Shown here: piece after piece, positions 6,194 through 20,646 of the stretch | Numbering within the stretch: position 1 is the first letter of the stretch | Layout: each line of letters starts with the position of its first letter | IMG/VR virus record: IMGVR_UViG_2529292921_000020 | Direction: 5' to 3' (one strand) | Length of the DNA: 43,121 bases | Source of the DNA: a virus | Lineage: Duplodnaviria; Heunggongvirae; Uroviricota; Caudoviricetes | Notes under the pieces: model-generated | Seen by the model: only the letters and a program-made list of their open reading frames with translations | What the model was told of the DNA's origin: nothing | Databases searched by the model: none | Translations under genes and position numbers: made by a program

Positions 6194-6840
6194 TTATTTA
6201 ATAGCTCCCGTTCGTGTTTTCTCTTGTTAATGGCATCTTCAGTAAATACAGGGTTACTGATAGTGACACCAATTTCAAAACAACCTTCAGACGTATTAAC
6301 GTTTGGTAATAACGTTTCCATTATCGCGTCCTCAACAATGAATTTTGTGATGTGGTGCCTGGTGCCTCCAGGTGACGTTAACCAGTTAACAATTAACGCC
6401 GGATACAGAGAATCCACCCATAACACTGTTTTTGGTTTTAACTGTTCCGCGTGCGCTCAGCCGCATTCACCGCATCACAAAATTCACTTTAAAAACGGCG
6501 GCAGAGCAGTCACGGAGTAAAACTGATACCGCCAAACGTCACCAGAAAATTGATAACAGAGGGCGTTGCAGCGGGGTTGTCGCTTAAGCGTATGGTCAAC
6601 CTGACAACCCGGTGTCCTCAACGGGGAAGGAATAACCCCGCCATACTTACCGCCGCGCCATTTCGCGGAGTGCCACAACCGGAAGCGCACGGTCGAACTA
6701 AATTTAACGACACCGTACAGAGAGACCAATTTCGCCGTGCGCTTTCGCGTTATGCCCTGACTTTTCAGGGACATATCCTTTCAGTAAACTGTCAGTGCCG
6801 GATGTTCACCCGTGTCCGGCGCACGCACTCCACCTGACCC

Positions 6841-10606: not shown

Positions 10607-10849
10607 GTGAATCAAAATGCCAGGTTAATGGCAACAAGATAGAACCATGTGCAGCACTGGCAAAGTCCCTTGAGCGTGATGCTGAATACACGATGCGAAA
10701 AGGTCTGCTGATATACAAAATCTGAAATGAGAGTTTAACTCGCGGTCCTGATTTTGTGATGTTGCGTTCCGGTGAATTTTCTAAATTACCAGTTCGGGTT
10801 TCATTTTGTCCGTTCTGTGGTGAAAGTCTGAAAACGTGGGAGAACAGAA

Positions 10850-11161
10850 ATGAATGAAATTAAAGAAATACCAGTAGTACGTGATGAATATGGCTGCTGG
10901 ACGCATCCTGAATATGAAAAATTCTGTGACGGTCGGGAATATATTTCAACGGAAGAGTTTAACGCCTGGATGGAGGAAAATAATCTTCAATACGTCCTCT
11001 GCTTCAGAGATGAAGGATGTGCTGACCTTGATGCGTGTGATGCTGATATTTCTGCATGGGAACCGGAACGACCAGAGGGCAATGGATGGTTTATTGGTTC
11101 AATACATGACACCGAAGATGGCCCGGTTTGTGTATGGCTGAGAAATAAGGTCGAAGCATAA
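10850..11161 (+). CDS. Strongly acidic small protein (hypothetical)
   Basis: 103-aa ORF; about 25 Asp/Glu versus about 9 Lys/Arg by hand count. Confidence 0.45.
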   Translation: MNEIKEIPVVRDEYGCWTHPEYEKFCDGREYISTEEFNAWMEENNLQYVLCFRDEGCADLDACDADISAWEPERPEGNGWFIGSIHDTEDGPVCVWLRNKVEA

Positions 11162-11281
11162 AGGCTATAAACCGACTAACAACTAAATACTGAAGATTTA
11201 AATCAGAAACGATTTTTATTAAATCCTTAACCGGAGGGATTCCTGCACCCTCAAATCATCAGGAGGCCGCCCGAAAGGGCG

Positions 11282-11788
11282 GTGGAGATAATAATGGGAA
11301 TAACTAAAGAACGATTGTTGGAAATAGCAAACCTTAGTGATTGGGCATTAAGTGATGAGAGAATTGTTTCTCCTCATGCTTATGAGTCAGTTACAAGTAT
11401 AGAAATAACAACAATGGCTAGAATGCTGCTTGGTTATTTCAAAATAGAAAATAAAAAACAGATGGATAGTAATGTTGATATATGTGAGATTTTAGACGAT
11501 TGGGGGGCTTGGGTTGTGGCTGGTAATAGTTCTATTGATTGGCAGGAAATAGCTGATAAATATAAAAATGTTGTTCCTCATGGTAAAAAATCACGTCGTC
11601 AGTGCAGCAATGATGAAGGGCGAATTATTGACATTAGTATCCTTAGGTTAGAAAGATATAAGCAACAAGAATATGAGTTAATTGTTGCTCATTTCGTGAT
11701 TGGTTTATCTCTTCGTGCTATTGCAAAGCAACAAGGATGTTCAGATGGAACAATTCGTAAAAGATTGCAAAAAGCCTTAGGTTTTTGA
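11282..11788 (+). CDS. Q-like antitermination-family protein (QuuD-type), AT-rich
   Basis: 168-aa ORF; motifs WGAW, SRRQCSNDE and C-terminal HTH CSDGTIRKRLQKA resemble my recollection of DLP12 QuuD; real start may be internal. Confidence 0.45.
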   Translation: MEIIMGITKERLLEIANLSDWALSDERIVSPHAYESVTSIEITTMARMLLGYFKIENKKQMDSNVDICEILDDWGAWVVAGNSSIDWQEIADKYKNVVPHGKKSRRQCSNDEGRIIDISILRLERYKQQEYELIVAHFVIGLSLRAIAKQQGCSDGTIRKRLQKALGF

Positions 11789-11817
11789 CTGGATATATAG
11801 CAATTACCAGTTAAGAG

Positions 11818-12450
11818 TCAGCGGTTTTTACCAGTGTAATGGTATAAGGATACTCCCATGTGTCTTACATGATATGGAAGCGCTGTTGCTGGATGCTTTG
11901 TGATACTCTTAAAGCGGAGGGGAGAGCCTTCCGCTTCAATTTCTGCGTCCGAAACGGTCGTAGAGAAAAATTCTTTCCATTCATTGAATTTTACTGCTGA
12001 TTTGTCAGACTTTATATAAATTAGAATTCCTCCATGATCGTCACGTGACGTACCCGTGCCGTAACGTTCGGTTAGCTGAATCCAGCCATTATGAATAGAT
12101 TTGGGGCCTCTCCATAATTTTGCTTCACCGATCCATTCGAATTTTCCGAATTGATGTTTAACTAATAAATCAACGTGACCGCCATGTTGAGTATCATGTT
12201 CAACATCATAAAACCTACCTTTCAGGAAATTTTTGATCGACGCTGTTAGCTCGTCCTCTCCCCACTTAGCATCTTGATAGAAGTGTTTGTCATTTTCTAA
12301 ATTCTGAATAGCGTCGTCTAAATCTTCATAGAGTTGCTTTACAAAAATATTTTTGTCTGCAGCTAATTTTCTTTGAACCATTCCCCTAAATTCAGGATCC
12401 ATTCTAATTAATGATTGAAGGTCTGCAGTACAGATGTTTACATCACTCAT
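11818..12450 (-). CDS. PD-(D/E)xK-type nuclease-like protein, third gene of a three-gene operon
   Basis: About 210 aa from MSDVNICTADL; core motif GGHVDLLVKHQFGKFEWIGEAKLW (D...ExK); start ATG overlaps the upstream stop (ATGAGTGA). Confidence 0.55.
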   Translation of the reverse strand: MSDVNICTADLQSLIRMDPEFRGMVQRKLAADKNIFVKQLYEDLDDAIQNLENDKHFYQDAKWGEDELTASIKNFLKGRFYDVEHDTQHGGHVDLLVKHQFGKFEWIGEAKLWRGPKSIHNGWIQLTERYGTGTSRDDHGGILIYIKSDKSAVKFNEWKEFFSTTVSDAEIEAEGSPLRFKSITKHPATALPYHVRHMGVSLYHYTGKNR

Positions 12451-12871
12451 GCAGACTCTCCAAAAGACTCGAAGGAGTAAAGTATGGATAAAGATACTGG
12501 CTAAAATTATCAACCAATTCGCCAGTTTCTGGATGGTAAAAACTTCCTGTGTCTAAAGCATAGGAAATAAGATCATCTTCAACTGGTATTGGTTCTTCCG
12601 TTAAATTATCAATGTATTGAAAATGCATATCCAATAGATGTGCTTTATAGCTAGATAAATAATCAGTTGCTTTTATTAGCAGGATATAGTCATCTTTCGT
12701 ATCAGTTAGATAGGTTAAACCATTGATAAGGGTTTTGTATGTAAAGTGATTGATATTTTTAGCATCTTTACTAACCAGAAAAAGAAAAAGATCACGACAC
12801 ACACTGCGAACAGGATCATTAAAATCCTGCTCTATTTGCGTGATAATGTCGTGATATATACTCTTTTTCAT
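12443..12871 (-). CDS. Hypothetical protein, middle gene of the three-gene operon
   Basis: 142-aa ORF, AT-rich; start overlaps the stop of the upstream gene (ATGA) and its stop overlaps the start of the nuclease gene. Confidence 0.5.
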   Translation of the reverse strand: MKKSIYHDIITQIEQDFNDPVRSVCRDLFLFLVSKDAKNINHFTYKTLINGLTYLTDTKDDYILLIKATDYLSSYKAHLLDMHFQYIDNLTEEPIPVEDDLISYALDTGSFYHPETGELVDNFSQYLYPYFTPSSLLESLHE

Positions 12872-13964
12872 TTATGGCCTGATGATCTCGCTCTTCTTTT
12901 CTCTTCACAGGACTTAACAGAATCCAATATTTTTTCAACAATAAATATAATCGAATCAATGTTGTTACAGTTCTTCGCAATTGCTTCATGCAACCTAATT
13001 CTAGGATTATCAAGCATTGTCCTTTTTCCTGGTAATATTAACTCTACTGATAAAATATGTGAAGAACTTTGTGGTAAATCCCAAATTTTTCCCAACTTAA
13101 ACTTTGTCAATATTGGGCTTGCGGACTCTCCACTATGATGGTAAACATCTTGACGCAAACACTTTTGACTTGGTTTGAGTTTTAAAGAACTTGTATTGCC
13201 ATCTGAGGTGATAAAAGATACATGAGAAATTCTGCCATCTACTTTTTCGTAAAGATCTTGTATTGAACCAAATAATTCAAGAGGATTGTTTAAAATAACG
13301 CCAGCTTCTTTTTTATAAATTTAGCCACAAGGTATTGTTGAGGCTGTGATTCACTTCTTGGAAGGATAGATAAATCAATCGTAAGAATTAATATTTTTTC
13401 TGCAGGCATTAGCATGATGGTATTAAAGCATTGCGTGACTTGGCGTGTTTTGCATTTTATTTCTCCACCATTAGCACGTAATTCCATACCCGCATCGCTA
13501 AGATGTGTTGGGTCAAGCTCTATCACTTCAGTGTAATACGCTTTGGATAAAAAAACAGCAGTGTCAATTTGTTTATCACGAATGATATCTTGACGTAGTT
13601 CAGCAAAATGCAGCTCAGTATCAGCAACTAACAGCTCCTCTCTGGATAAAGGAATTGGGTATTTTTCTGAGAAGGGGCTATTGTCCTTTTTCTGATTTGT
13701 GAAAATTGTTTGTAATTTTGCTACGTCTTCATCGGTGATTCTATAAATAGAAAGTAATCGATTCCCGCTAAAAATTAAACCTTTCCAGAAATCGTCGATT
13801 CTGTCTTTTAGGTCGGGATTATGCTGAACTACACTATTTACACGTTCAATAAAAAGGGGTAATCCTTGGGCCGTTACACCCAGTGATGAACCAAGAAGCT
13901 TACGGGTGTTGCGCCAGCCAAAGCGTGAATTGATGTTTTTTACTGTTTGCTCAAGCATTAACAC
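12868..13964 (-). pseudogene. First gene of the three-gene operon, split into two frames (13290-13964 and 12868-13320); about 360 aa if fused
   Basis: 224-aa ORF ends at a TAA at 13290-13292 while the downstream frame is open from 13320 to 12868 without a start codon; the frames overlap around a T6 run at 13309-13314. Confidence 0.45.
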
Positions 13965-14304
13965 TTCCTTAATTTTCCCTTAACAATTTAGGGTGCTAAA
14001 CTTTTTTGCGCAGTTTACATAAAAAAATAGTGCGTACGCAAAAACTATCTAACATGATGAGCTTTAACCGGGAAATTTGTATATGTTGTGAGCATAAAGT
14101 TGGCTGAGAAATCTAAAACGGGTAGAATGACTGCGGGTGCTTGAGGCTATCTGTCTCAGGCATGAACACCAAAAGGCAGATAGAGAAAAGCCCCAGTTAA
14201 CATTACGCGTCCGGCAAGACGCTTAACATTAATCTGAGGCCATATCTATGCTCTACACACGTAGGTTAGCCTCTTACGTGCCGAAAGGCAAGGAGAAGCA
14301 GGCT

Positions 14305-14460
14305 ATGAAGCAGCAAAAGGCGATGTTAATCGCCCTGATCGTCATCTGTTTAACCGTCATAATGACGGCACTGGTAACGAGGAAAGACCTCTGCGAGGTA
14401 CGAATCCGAACCGGCCAGACGGAGGTCGCTGTCTTCACAGCTTACGAACCTGAGGAGTAA
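14305..14460 (+). CDS. hokD: Hok/Gef-family type I toxin (HokD/RelF-like), with overlapping upstream mok-like frame from 14248
   Basis: MKQQKAMLIALIVICLTVIMTALVTRKDLCEVRIRTGQTEVAVFTAYEPEE, near-identical to my recollection of E. coli HokD; upstream leader has inverted repeats (CTATCTG / CAGATAG). Confidence 0.8.
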   Translation: MKQQKAMLIALIVICLTVIMTALVTRKDLCEVRIRTGQTEVAVFTAYEPEE

Positions 14461-14526
14461 GAGACCAGGCGGGGGAGAATCCCTCGCCACCTCTGATGTG
14501 TCAGGCATCCTCAACGCACCCGCACT

Positions 14527-14553
14527 TAACCCGCTTCGGCGGGTTTTGTTTTT
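14527..14553 (+). terminator. Rho-independent terminator downstream of hok
   Basis: CCCGC-TTCG-GCGGG stem-loop followed by TTTTGTTTTT. Confidence 0.6.
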
Positions 14554-15967: not shown

Positions 15968-16327
15968 ATGCTCATAGATTTGGTTTTACCTTACCCGCCG
16001 ACGGTGAACACTTACTGGCGACGCCGTGGCAGCACATATTTTGTATCAAAAGTCGGTGAGCGTTATCGCCGTGATGTGGCGCTTATTGTTCGCCAGCAGC
16101 AACTGAAATTAAACCTGTCCGGAAGGCCGGCAATAGAAATTATTGCAGAGCCACCGGATAAGCGCCGTCGTGACCTGGACAATATCCTGAAGGCACCACT
16201 GGATGTACTGACGCATGCGGGGCTGCTCATAGACGACGAGCAGTTTGATGAAATTAATATTGTGCGCGGTCAGCTTGTTCCTGGTGGGCGGTTGGGGATA
16301 AAAATCACAGAACTGGAGTATGCATGA
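15968..16327 (+). CDS. rusA: Holliday junction resolvase RusA
   Basis: 119-aa ORF; conserved RusA motifs (RRRDLDNILKA, LIDDEQ, GGRLGIKITE). Confidence 0.85.
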   Translation: MLIDLVLPYPPTVNTYWRRRGSTYFVSKVGERYRRDVALIVRQQQLKLNLSGRPAIEIIAEPPDKRRRDLDNILKAPLDVLTHAGLLIDDEQFDEINIVRGQLVPGGRLGIKITELEYA

Positions 16328-17013
16328 ATAACCAGTATTTACAGTTTGTTCGTGAGCAACTCATGATTGCCACCGCCGATTTGAGTGGATCAACAAAAGG
16401 GCAGCTTGAGGCCTGGCAGGAGAATGCCATGTTTGATACAGGGCGTTACAGGCGTAAAAAAATCCGGTACCGCGATGAAGTGACTGGAAAAATGATAACG
16501 CGGGATAATCCACCAATCCCGGGAAAGCAATCGCTGGCGAAGGGGGCGTCAATTCCTCTCGTCAGTCCGGTTGAGTTTTTGACATCATCGTGGCGGCGGG
16601 CTGTTCTGTCTCTTGAAGAACATCATAAAGCCTGGTTGTTGTGGTGTTACAGCGGGAGTATTTGTTGGGAATATCAGATCGCGATAACACAGTGGGCGTG
16701 GAATGAATTTAATACTCAATCCGGTACCAGAAAAATTGCTGGGAAAACGCAGGAACGCCTGAAAAAATTAATCTGGCTGGCGGCGCAGGCAGTAAAAGCA
16801 GAACTTTTTGGTGGGGAAGGTTATGAATATCAGGAGCTGGCATTACTGGCGGGAGTGACAACTAAAAACTGGTCCAAAACATTTACTCGTCACTGGGTTG
16901 CAATGAAACACATTTTTCACCGACTGGATAGTGAGGCTTTATTATTTGTAATGAGAACACGTTCAAAACAAAAGGCGGCATTTTCAAAGCAAAGTGTTGC
17001 AAAAGTAGATTGA
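16324..17013 (+). CDS. Late-gene antitermination protein Q-like
   Basis: 229-aa ORF directly after rusA and before the promoter, terminator and tRNA-lysis region, the canonical Q position; family assigned by synteny. Confidence 0.6.
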   Translation: MNNQYLQFVREQLMIATADLSGSTKGQLEAWQENAMFDTGRYRRKKIRYRDEVTGKMITRDNPPIPGKQSLAKGASIPLVSPVEFLTSSWRRAVLSLEEHHKAWLLWCYSGSICWEYQIAITQWAWNEFNTQSGTRKIAGKTQERLKKLIWLAAQAVKAELFGGEGYEYQELALLAGVTTKNWSKTFTRHWVAMKHIFHRLDSEALLFVMRTRSKQKAAFSKQSVAKVD

Positions 17014-17576: not shown

Positions 17577-19148
17577 TTACTGAGAGCTCAGATCAACTTT
17601 CCAGGGCAACAGATCGCGTACCCGGTTTGCCGGCCAGTCCTGGATATGTTCAATGACGTAACGCAGCCACTTTTCTGGCTCCACATTGTTCAGACGGCAT
17701 GTGCCGATCAGCGAGTACAACACCGCCGCATGTTCACCACCGCTGTCGGAACCCGCGAACATCCAGTTTTTCCGGCCTACGGCCACTCCCCGTAAGGCGT
17801 TCTCTGCGATGTTGTTGTCGATTTCCACCCAGCCATTACTGCAGTACACGTTCAGTGCATCCCACTGTTTCAGCAGGTATGCGAACGCTTTTGCCGTATC
17901 TGAGTGACGCGACAGTGTTTTCATCTGTTGCTGTATCCAGTCATACAGTGACTGCATCAGTGGCGCGGCTCTGGCTTTTCTTGCCGCCAGACGCTGTTCT
18001 GCTGAACAGCACCGGACCTCTGCCTCGATGGCATACAGTTCACCGATACGCTGCAGGGCTTCCGTGGTGATGTAGGTGGGCGCTCTTGCATGCACATCGT
18101 GGATTTTTCTCCGGGCATGAGCCATACACGCGGCTTCCGTTATTCTGCCGGATTCGTATAACGCCCGGTAACCACCGTAAGCATCGGCCTGAAGCACACC
18201 GCTGTAACCGGCCAGGTGATTTTGTGGATGGATACCTTTCCGGTCCGGACTGTACGCGAACCAGACCGCCGGGGGCATCTGTGAACCGGCGTTACGGTCA
18301 TCACGGACGTAGACCCACAGCCGGGCTGTCCGGGTTTTACCGCTGCCCGGCTCCTGGACCGGGACGGGGATATCATCAGCATGGACTTTACCGGGCATCA
18401 GCACATACTGGCGCAGGACGTCATACAGCGGCTCCAGCAGTTCAGCAACAGCACCTGTCCAGCGCCCCAGTGTGGCACGGCTCAGCTCCACGCCCTGACG
18501 ACGGTATATTTCTGACTGGCGGTATAACGGCAGATGGTCTGCATATTTCCCGGTGACAACATGGGCCAGAAGCCCCGCTCCGGCATAACTGCGTGCAATG
18601 GGTTTTGAAGGTACTGGTGCCTGCACGATATGGTCGCACCGGCAACAGGCCTGTTTCGGACGTTGTGTTTCGATAACCTTAAAGGCGCTGCTGATAAGCT
18701 CCAGTTGCTCTGACACATCACATCCCAGAGAACTGAGTTCACCACCACAGGCAGGACAGCATTCCTCTTCCGGCCGGATAACCCGGGTTTCACGGGGAAG
18801 TGAGGCCGGTAACGGTTTACGGGCTGAAGACTGGCGCAGGGCGGATGGCAGTACCGGGTCATATTGCTCACCCAGCGTTTCCGCCATTTCTTCCTGAAGT
18901 GCGCTGATTCGCTCCTGTGCTTCCTGTATCTGCCGTTCGGTTTTTGCACGAAGTTTTTCTGAGCTTTTACCGAACTGCATACGTTGCAGTTTCGCAACCA
19001 GCGCCTTCAGCCGGTTGATTTCGGAAGCATAAGCCGCCACCCGCTGTGAGAGCAGGCGGTTGTATTCAGCCATCTGGCGGATGGTGTCCTGTTGCGTCTG
19101 CAACAGTGCCCGCAGGCGGGCGTTCTCATGAGCAAGTGAGGTGTCCAT
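17577..19148 (-). CDS. IS66-family transposase (TnpC)
   Basis: 523-aa ORF with N-terminal coiled coil, Cys-rich zinc-binding region and DDE core typical of IS66 transposases. Confidence 0.85.
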
Positions 19149-20192: not shown

Positions 20193-20646
20193 TATTTTTG
20201 TAGAGCCGGAGGAAACAGACCAGACGGTTTAAATGAGCCGGTTACTTTGTTAAAAGAAACTGGCATGGTGAATCCCCCTGTGCGGAGGGGCAATCAGCGA
20301 GTAGGTATATGGGATAATCGCGGATTCAGGTGCTGGTACTGAATTCACCGGGAGGCACCCGGCACCATGCAATGGCACATAGCGCCACTCTCCAGCCCCT
20401 CTCCGGAGGGGCTTTCTTATGGACAAAAAAAGCCCGCGCAGGGAGACGCGGGCGGCAAGGAATAAACAACAAAACGTGAAGTAATATTTCAGCTGGCGAA
20501 TAATATCCGACAGTAATCACTCTGCGCAATAGCGCGGCCTTTTTCGTATTGCGGACTGTTGTCTCTCTTCTGCCATTGTCCTGTAACTTCCGGACTTCAG
20601 CCCGCTCCTCATTTTACTCACAATATTATCCCGGCCGGGAGGATTC

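Follow-up and report, generated by a model that had tools for sequence, protein, structure and literature searches.

A second QuuD/Q21-type antiterminator gene beside an apparently exchangeable cargo cassette in the early region of a lambdoid prophage

Q proteins are textbook antiterminators and are thought to act at one promoter. According to Yin, Kaelber and Ebright (2019, doi 10.1101/651190), the binding element of Q21, the Q protein of phage 21, is a pair of direct 8-bp repeats. The hotspots of P2 and P4 hold highly variable defence cargo between conserved flanks (Rousset et al. 2022, PMC9122126). The locus described here combines a gene of the first kind with cargo reminiscent of the second. 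It lies in a stretch of 43,121 nucleotides (nt) from a virus of the Caudoviricetes (IMG/VR record IMGVR_UViG_2529292921_000020), the whole of which is referred to below as the window and which is a Rac/Qin-like lambdoid prophage. Its subject is a Q-like gene on the plus strand that is followed by three genes of opposite orientation and is distinct from the canonical late Q gene of the same prophage. This gene represents a lineage of N-terminally extended Q proteins, termed long forms, which are proposed to control a minus-strand promoter of the accessory (cargo) genes in step with the lytic cycle, and not the late genes. A probability of roughly 0.5 is assigned to this reading, and the sign of the regulation is much less certain.

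A sequence-only reading of the window had pointed to a second gene of the Q-like antiterminator family at 11282-11788, and family and structure searches bear this out. In the list of open reading frames (ORFs) of the window, the gene appears as a GTG-start ORF of 168 residues (11282..11788, plus strand). A better start is the ATG at 11294, which is preceded by a GGAG ending 7 nt upstream and is also the annotated start in Escherichia coli O127:H6 E2348/69. The hidden Markov model search proposed by the sequence-only reading returned a significant antiterminator match: the product of 11294-11788 matches PF06530 (Phage_antitermQ) with 104 bits, against a curated cut-off of 26 bits (E = 6e-30, residues 66-168). 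A second match, with E = 2e-32, is to PHROG 79, 'anti-termination protein Q-like'. The QuuD-type motifs named earlier (WGAW, SRRQC and CSDGTIRKRLQKA) are all found in the ORF, and an alignment to QuuD of DLP12 (37% identity over 103 residues, E = 2e-25) spans them as WGAW, SRxQC and CSDGxIxKRLQKA. Q21 is the only relative in the PDB that is recognizable by sequence (E = 6e-4), and sub-threshold matches to sigma-70 region 4 cover residues 128-166 (Sigma70_r4_2, residues 132-166).

The predicted structure leads to the same family. An AlphaFold2 model built on an alignment that included distant representatives reached a predicted local distance difference test score (pLDDT) of 81 overall and of at least 90 in the Q core; a first model, from a shallow alignment of close homologues, had a pLDDT of 50 and was discarded. 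The top 13 matches of a Foldseek comparison with the PDB are all Q21 chains (probability 0.96-1.00, template modelling score 0.42-0.56 by target), followed by region 4 of extracytoplasmic function sigma factors, in agreement with the published fold of Q21 (doi 10.1101/651190). The ORF is a real member of the QuuD/Q21-type antiterminator family, and it is already annotated as 'antiterminator Q family protein' in E2348/69. As had been noted, it is AT-rich, with a G+C content of 35% against 52% for the window. The prophage does carry another Q in the canonical position (16324-17013), as the sequence-only reading stated, but that protein belongs to PF06323, a family unrelated to the PF06530 of the Q-like protein. 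The Q-like gene itself sits 4.5 kb upstream of the canonical Q gene, in the interval from DUF977 to hok, and not in the position of a late-gene regulator.

A protein search yields two groups of relatives, long forms and short forms. The long forms (170-174 residues, 65-96% identical) come from E. coli and Salmonella; without exception they have the N-terminal extension and lie between DUF977 and hok, each followed by different opposite-strand genes. Beyond every long-form gene with enough sequence, with the exception of locus L049, a canonical Q follows at 1.7-4 kb, and these canonical Qs come from three unrelated families (PF06323, PF03589 or DUF1133). The short forms (113-125 residues, about 57-65% identical to the long-form core) begin at the equivalent of residue ~62 of the long form. 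They occupy the normal Q position, after DUF968/rusA or replication genes, and the short-form loci inspected contain no other Q. Their carriers include mEp460, several Stx1a/Stx2a converting phages, Klebsiella phages, SfII and prophages of many Enterobacterales genera; named examples are LC567825 (Stx1a) and Stx2a_1447/WGPS2. No long form was found among the sequenced phages of the phage collection. In a tree of the Q core the two forms separate, with the long forms as a distinct clade, in which the family-wide motif AAGFKG reads ADKYK. Across ten distinct long forms the ratio of nonsynonymous to synonymous divergence (dN/dS) is 0.2-0.4 in both extension and core, with a core synonymous divergence of up to ~1.3. 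By these measures the long-form lineage is under purifying selection and not in decay.

The Q-like gene and the three genes convergent with it (g1, g2 and g3) form one AT-rich cassette of 2.8 kb (11284-14098), with a G+C content of 37% where the window has 52%. The window is homologous to a cassette-less prophage (L131) up to 11283 and again from 14099, the position of the -35 of the hok promoter; the relatives without the cassette in this comparison were strain AR_0150 and Sakai Sp14. In other prophages the slot is filled by different plus-strand genes. Of 5426 complete E. coli genomes, 13-14 carry this very cassette, among them STEC308, where it is found in a different lambdoid backbone. It has the attributes of a moron or accessory cassette: it is discrete and of foreign composition, has an orientation and a candidate promoter of its own, and is absent from close relatives. 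Across 125 loci of long and short forms, 48 distinct cargo types were distinguished, all AT-rich (G+C 0.29-0.44) and almost all on the strand opposite to Q. Cargo sets bracketed by Q and the conserved site described next (for example L012:6348-8921 and L016:6354-9262) span at least 15 Enterobacterales genera.

On the far side of the cargo lies a 12-mer, GCGTACGCAAAA, which consists of a palindromic 8-mer and an A tract. The window contains one exact copy, and one plus-strand copy was found downstream of the cargo in 17 of the 17 first loci. In all loci with enough downstream sequence, one single-nucleotide variant aside, the 8-mer GCGTACGC occurs once beyond the cargo, at 0.6-3.0 kb from the Q stop codon, with AAAA behind it in nearly every case. 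The chance expectation is 0.08-0.14 per locus. Loci without the exact 8-mer are either cases at contig ends or the Rouxiella locus (GCGCACGC), which has the one-base variant GCGCACGCAAAA; in this more distant relative the recognition helix differs too. The GCGTACGC site was not found in DLP12, whose QuuD is a more distant Q. Between long and short forms, conservation of the protein is highest in the helix-turn-helix and the helix that precedes it (0.67-0.72 identity) and lowest in the segment equivalent to the Q21 'torus' (0.46). The helix-turn-helix being the part best conserved between the forms fits a DNA site common to both, and the Q-like protein probably binds the palindrome.

The 12-mer may instead have been kept for some other reason, either as the -35 and flank of a cargo promoter or as a border for cargo exchange, with the Q-like protein acting elsewhere. 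Its minus strand holds a good -35 hexamer, TTGCGT, and it stands at the border of the cassette. The combination of differing cargo and retained flanks is as expected of exchange by recombination within conserved flanks, and the Q-like gene of STEC308 holds a recombination joint, its N-terminal half being different and its C-terminal half identical. A -35 hexamer, however, cannot explain 12 perfectly conserved bases amid flanks that cannot be aligned. Nor does this explanation account for the strict link to one sub-clade of Q, seen in the lack of a site in DLP12 and in the joint change of site and recognition helix in Rouxiella, and no recombinase gene is nearby. A role of the 12-mer that is independent of the Q-like protein is therefore quite improbable.

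The surroundings of the site differ between the two forms. In the short forms, TAnnnT starts 12 nt after the palindrome (11 nt between) in 49 of 49 distinct versions. Next come a conserved TTAAGAGTGG-like block and, ~30-60 nt later in many versions, an intrinsic terminator; the whole lies directly upstream of stx1AB or of lysis genes. This appears to be the layout expected of a late promoter with an upstream Q-binding element and a terminator behind it, although a sigma-dependent pause element could not be placed confidently in the block. At the long-form sites only the 12-mer is kept. The plus-strand -10 spacing is retained in 3 of 9 distinct long-form versions, and neither the TTAAGAGTGG block nor the nearby terminator is kept in the long-form loci. 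Read on the minus strand, the site is TTTTGCGTACGC, and a TAnnnT hexamer stands 17-18 nt beyond its TTGCGT in 8 of the 9 long-form versions (five among the roughly six that are independent), as well as in 32 of the 49 short-form versions. In the window, the TTGCGT/TAAACT pair lies ~50 nt upstream of the g3 ATG at 13958 and would make a sensible promoter for the cargo operon. The minus-strand cargo promoter is thus the element consistently kept beside the long-form site, which suggests that the Q-like protein most likely switches the cargo operon.

In the proposed mechanism, the Q-like protein would be made from the early rightward transcript, and only after induction, because its gene sits in the early rightward operon behind a shared leader. 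Its sigma-region-4-like helix-turn-helix would then bind the palindrome, and the bound protein would act on RNA polymerase at the site. This would switch the cargo operon with the lytic cycle. The favoured version is a shut-off, in which the -35 TTGCGT inside the site would be occluded and head-on transcription from the early operon would contribute to the silencing. The late genes of the prophage are run by a different Q, that of PF06323, and the Q-like protein is not the late-gene switch. In a broader and rather doubtful form of this idea, the Qs of the entire clade may bind a palindrome common to two back-to-back promoters, turning the rightward one on and the accessory operon off, or otherwise controlling the latter.

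Several points weigh against control of the cargo promoter by the long-form Q. To our knowledge no Q protein acts as a classical repressor, and no report of one was found in the literature searched. A generic promoter scan called neither the plus-strand nor the minus-strand site a promoter, both of which have about 8 of 12 consensus positions and fall below its threshold. Only about six long-form versions are independent, and the promoter statistics are correspondingly thin. The 12-mer could matter solely as a promoter or as a recombination border. The torus-equivalent segment, poorly conserved between the two forms, is conserved at 0.75 within the long forms; this hints at continued engagement of RNA polymerase, for which a pure DNA binder has no obvious need. 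Finally, the window has a truncated Q-like protein and a broken g3, and the cassette may be inactive in this strain.

These last defects come to light when 10800-14300 is compared with E2348/69, from which the window differs by four missing T's in homopolymer runs and a single substitution (12690). One T is missing from the run at ~11781, and with it the Q-like protein loses its last 9 residues; counted from the ATG, the protein has 164 residues in the window and 173 in E2348/69 and 11 other long-form loci fetched. A 2-nt deletion in the T run at 11824 changes the C-terminus of g1, and a 1-nt T deletion at 13308 splits g3 into ORFs 13290-13964 and 12868-13158. Among the long forms, truncations are limited to the window copy and a few fragments. 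The T-run deletions are either a recent inactivation or homopolymer sequencing errors, between which the window alone cannot tell.

Damage of this kind, together with the lack of the long form in any sequenced free phage, would be expected if the gene were a functionless hitch-hiker, a recombination scar retained by its position between useful neighbours. The low dN/dS at a core synonymous divergence of such depth speaks against a scar or pseudogene, as do the intact, full-length ORFs in both E. coli and Salmonella and the strict conservation of the partner site. This explanation is disfavoured and can hardly be credited.

The plus strand of the locus raises the question of antitermination. 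Both a -10-like TAACAT (14050-14055) and the hok terminator at 14528 are present in the window, and in a relay the Q-like protein would carry polymerase from a plus-strand promoter by the palindrome through that terminator (14528-14545) into DUF968, rusA and the canonical Q gene. The early operon would thereby be restarted past the convergent cargo, in a two-step Q cascade. The short-form ancestor has exactly such a layout (site, invariant -10 and often a terminator upstream of late genes), and such a unit, once transplanted, would at once drive the genes behind it. The regulators downstream of the site lie behind a strong terminator, the long forms conserve the torus-equivalent segment among themselves as noted, and 2.2 kb of antisense, untranslated cargo would presumably otherwise expose the early transcript to termination. 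The relay is nonetheless unlikely. The -10 spacing that is invariant in the short forms (49/49) is kept in only 3/9 long forms, and the block after the -10 and the terminator have also been lost. The distance from the site to the hok promoter is not constant among long-form loci and varies from ~30 to 200 nt. Close relatives have the same hok-DUF968-rusA-Q backbone without the cassette, so that the backbone reaches Q without the Q-like protein.

A site shared with other phages could also be used in trans. The Q-like protein would then switch on or block the late promoters of co-resident or incoming phages with the same site, or the converse would occur. Both the site and the well-conserved helix-turn-helix are indeed common to phages that have the short form as their sole Q, including Stx1a converting phages. 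On the other hand, a gene in the early operon would be silent in the lysogen, and the link of the Q-like protein to its own cassette suffices to explain the conservation. An action in trans is very improbable, and control of the cargo promoter in cis is retained as the preferred reading.

The origin of the cassette can be traced through two sister loci. A long-form locus (L064) and a short-form locus that is a canonical late-region unit (L083) share a uniform 74% nucleotide identity from about codon 62 of Q through the cargo to the site, and their homology starts exactly where the short forms begin. The Q core therefore co-diverges with the cargo in this comparison. The cargo cluster that contains the two has 22 short-form members and one long-form member. 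The cargo of the window has distant counterparts of its own, as g1, g2 and g3 are 35%, 26% and 23% identical to the first, second and third cargo genes behind the short Q of the Stx1a phage LC567825. Taken together, the L064/L083 homology and the LC567825 cargo homology show that the cassette descends from a late-region unit of the order 'Q, cargo, late promoter', as found in mEp460 and some Stx1a phages. The long-form cassette is such a unit fused to a new N-terminal module in an early-region slot. In LC567825 itself (L128, 6373-9055), the g1-g3-like minus-strand cargo separates Q from the site-plus-terminator block immediately ahead of stx1AB, and the late promoter serving stx1 is displaced by ~2.2 kb from Q.

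Both suggestions of the sequence-only reading about the history of the gene survive in part. As a remnant of recombination between two late regions, its origin is supported by the 74% identity of L064 and L083; the notion of mere debris is not supported, given the distinct clade, the purifying selection and the presence in 68 complete E. coli genomes and in Salmonella. As a regulator travelling with the cargo, its anatomy agrees, since one cassette replaces the slot genes and its Q core co-diverges with the cargo; the regulatory role would be that proposed above.

The N-terminal extension sets the long forms apart. Residues 1-60 have neither a Pfam match nor similarity to any Q family, and they match PHROG 3323, a family of unknown function, with E = 1e-14. 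In the model they form helices at residues 5-19, 27-30 and 35-60, the last of which continues into helix H1 of the core, at a pLDDT of ~60-70. For most pairs of long forms the dN/dS of the extension is 0.2-0.8. The same module heads an unrelated protein of 193 residues (P0207, L133:5001-5582) on a metagenomic phage contig with a single-subunit RNA polymerase. This protein is the only other carrier found, and its phage gave no functional clue. The N-terminal module is thus a small mobile domain. A derivation from the usual gene of the slot (Sakai ECs_2756) is not supported, as the two have no similarity.

The leader upstream of the gene is kept ahead of all long-form genes and includes two hairpin-like repeats, GGAGGG..CCCTC and GGCCGCCC-GAAA-GGGCGG. 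It occurs in 2602 of the 5426 E. coli genomes, mostly ahead of other, unrelated genes, and together with the N-terminal extension in 68 of them. The leader marks the left edge of a general variable slot between DUF977 and hok. No compensatory changes were found in the predicted leader hairpins, which leaves a structured RNA element unproven, and an Rfam scan of the leader and site region returned nothing beyond sok. A boxA/boxB-like interpretation (TCCTTAAC with a GAAA-loop hairpin) is a resemblance only. The coordinates of these and the other features are collected in Table 1.

Table 1. Features of the Q-like locus and its surroundings (nucleotide positions in the window; residues of the Q-like protein).
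Feature	Position	Strand	Basis or remark
Leader, left border of variable slot, 66 nt	11218..11283	+	contains AATCCTTAAC, two hairpin-like repeats, then GGAG ribosome-binding site
N-terminal extension, residues 1-60 of Q-like protein	11294..11473	+	helical; missing from canonical Q proteins
Q core, QuuD/Q21 type (PF06530)	11474..11788	+	family and fold searches; holds WGAW helix, torus-equivalent segment and helix-turn-helix
Segment equivalent to Q21 'torus'	residues 79-105	+	alignment to Q21
Sigma-region-4-like helix-turn-helix	residues ~137-163, nt 11702-11782	+	
Cargo g1, 197 residues in E2348/69	11818..12402	-	PHROG 9664; convergent with Q-like gene
Cargo g2, 142 residues	12443..12871	-	PHROG 11490
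Cargo g3, 363 residues in E2348/69	12868..13958	-	PHROG 12777
Candidate cargo-operon promoter	14012..14041	-	-35 TTGCGT 14036-14041, 18-nt spacer, -10 TAAACT 14012-14017
GCGTACGCAAAA, palindromic 8-mer and A tract, candidate binding site of Q-like protein	14032-14043	+	conservation
Right cassette border and resident hok/sok locus	14099..14545	+	
hok promoter TTGGCT-17-TAGAAT	14100-14128	+	promoter scan
sok/hok RNA	14135-14310	+	Rfam sok, 117 bits
mok/hok	14248-14460	+	Hok family match
Strong intrinsic terminator	14528-14545	+	terminator search
Canonical late Q	16324..17013	+	PF06323, 305 bits; after DUF968 and rusA, before two tRNA genes

Of the cargo genes, g1 overlaps the Q-like gene by 4 nt in the intact version of the locus. 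It gives the sole PADLOC match among the three, a weak one to PDC-S54 (E = 0.002) that does not rise above noise. To the eye, a D..EAK motif in the letters of g1 recalls PD-(D/E)xK nucleases. For g1-g3 no Pfam family above threshold, no NCBIfam family and no PDB match was found. Some cargo of sister loci resembles defence genes, namely a cytosine methyltransferase with an OLD/AriA/HEC-04-like ATPase, and a metallo-beta-lactamase-fold protein; most cargo matches nothing.

The remaining landmarks are those of an ordinary prophage of this type. The nearly identical element of E2348/69 has an integrase, an exonuclease and dicB on its left side. Rightward, the order is a YdaS/YdaT-type early region, replication genes, DUF977, the Q-like gene, the three opposite-strand genes, hok/sok, DUF968, rusA, the canonical Q and tRNAs. 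Rfam places DicF at 6496-6547 (minus strand) and STnc100 at 20234-20424 (plus strand), which, like sok, are ordinary components of Qin/Rac-like prophages. An IS66-family transposase gene (17577-19148, minus strand) directly follows the two tRNA genes behind the canonical Q. E2348/69 has the IS4-like ISEc13 where the window has IS66, and in both strains an insertion separates the Q/tRNA region from the late genes.

In the literature searched, the coverage of which was limited, no description was found of a cargo slot bounded by a Q gene and its own site, of a second, N-terminally extended Q lineage in the early region, or of a cargo promoter overlapping a presumed Q site, and nothing specific on a hotspot separating Q from the late promoter came up. 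A maintained second Q with its own site around exchangeable cargo suggests that Q proteins have been recruited anew to couple accessory genes to the life cycle of the phage, and it offers a model for how prophages may keep cargo from disturbing their own lytic growth. If the broader, clade-wide form of the idea holds, 'Q gene plus palindrome' would be a portable, cargo-independent lytic-cycle switch, and the long form would be that switch freed from late-gene control and moved to the early region; in an alternative version, the two Qs would form a two-step Q-to-Q cascade across the cargo. In practical terms, candidate defence or virulence cargo may be mined cheaply by applying the simple rule 'Q of this clade ... 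GCGTACGCAAAA' to sequences.

Compared with Q21 and QuuD, the Q-like protein has the same core family, a fold closest to Q21, a sigma-region-4-like helix-turn-helix and the WGAW helix, and its basic segment PHGKKSRRQC..DEG aligns where Q21 builds its RNA-exit 'nozzle'. It differs from Q21 in having a 60-residue extension and a core of ~110 residues against the 162 residues of Q21, without the long loop of the helix-turn[loop]-helix and without most of the C-terminal tail. A compact core lacking loop and tail is evidently sufficient, since it is the sole Q found in mEp460. In place of the two direct 8-bp repeats bound by Q21, the candidate site here is an 8-bp palindrome; the letters of the Q21 site appear only in the figures of that paper (doi 10.1101/651190) and were not compared with GCGTACGCAAAA. 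The position of the gene also departs from both relatives, as this is an early-region gene that does not immediately precede a late promoter, in a prophage that has another late Q.

Among systems with cargo, the short-form Qs of mEp460 and the Stx1a phages share the layout of Q, AT-rich opposite-strand cargo and GCGTACGCAAAA, and in one case the cargo itself; they differ in that the short form is the sole Q in the loci inspected and its site stands in a promoter-like block with an invariant -10, a plus-strand block that the long form has lost. In DLP12 a porin gene, nmpC (nmpC/lc after quuD), is convergent with quuD and is followed by lysis genes (L130, 3957-7614), without GCGTACGC. The stx genes are likewise accessory genes of foreign composition beside Q, and in APSE a related Q (~40% identity) adjoins an annotated variable toxin region. 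Unlike in these and other morons, the cargo here is bracketed by a Q-type gene and its own conserved site, and the bracket has moved to the early region as a second unit. The hotspots of P2 and P4 resemble the locus in their conserved flanks and AT-rich variable cargo, some of which, in the sister loci, matches defence models. They differ in phage family and position, and in the nature of the flanks, which here are a transcription factor gene and its presumed binding site.

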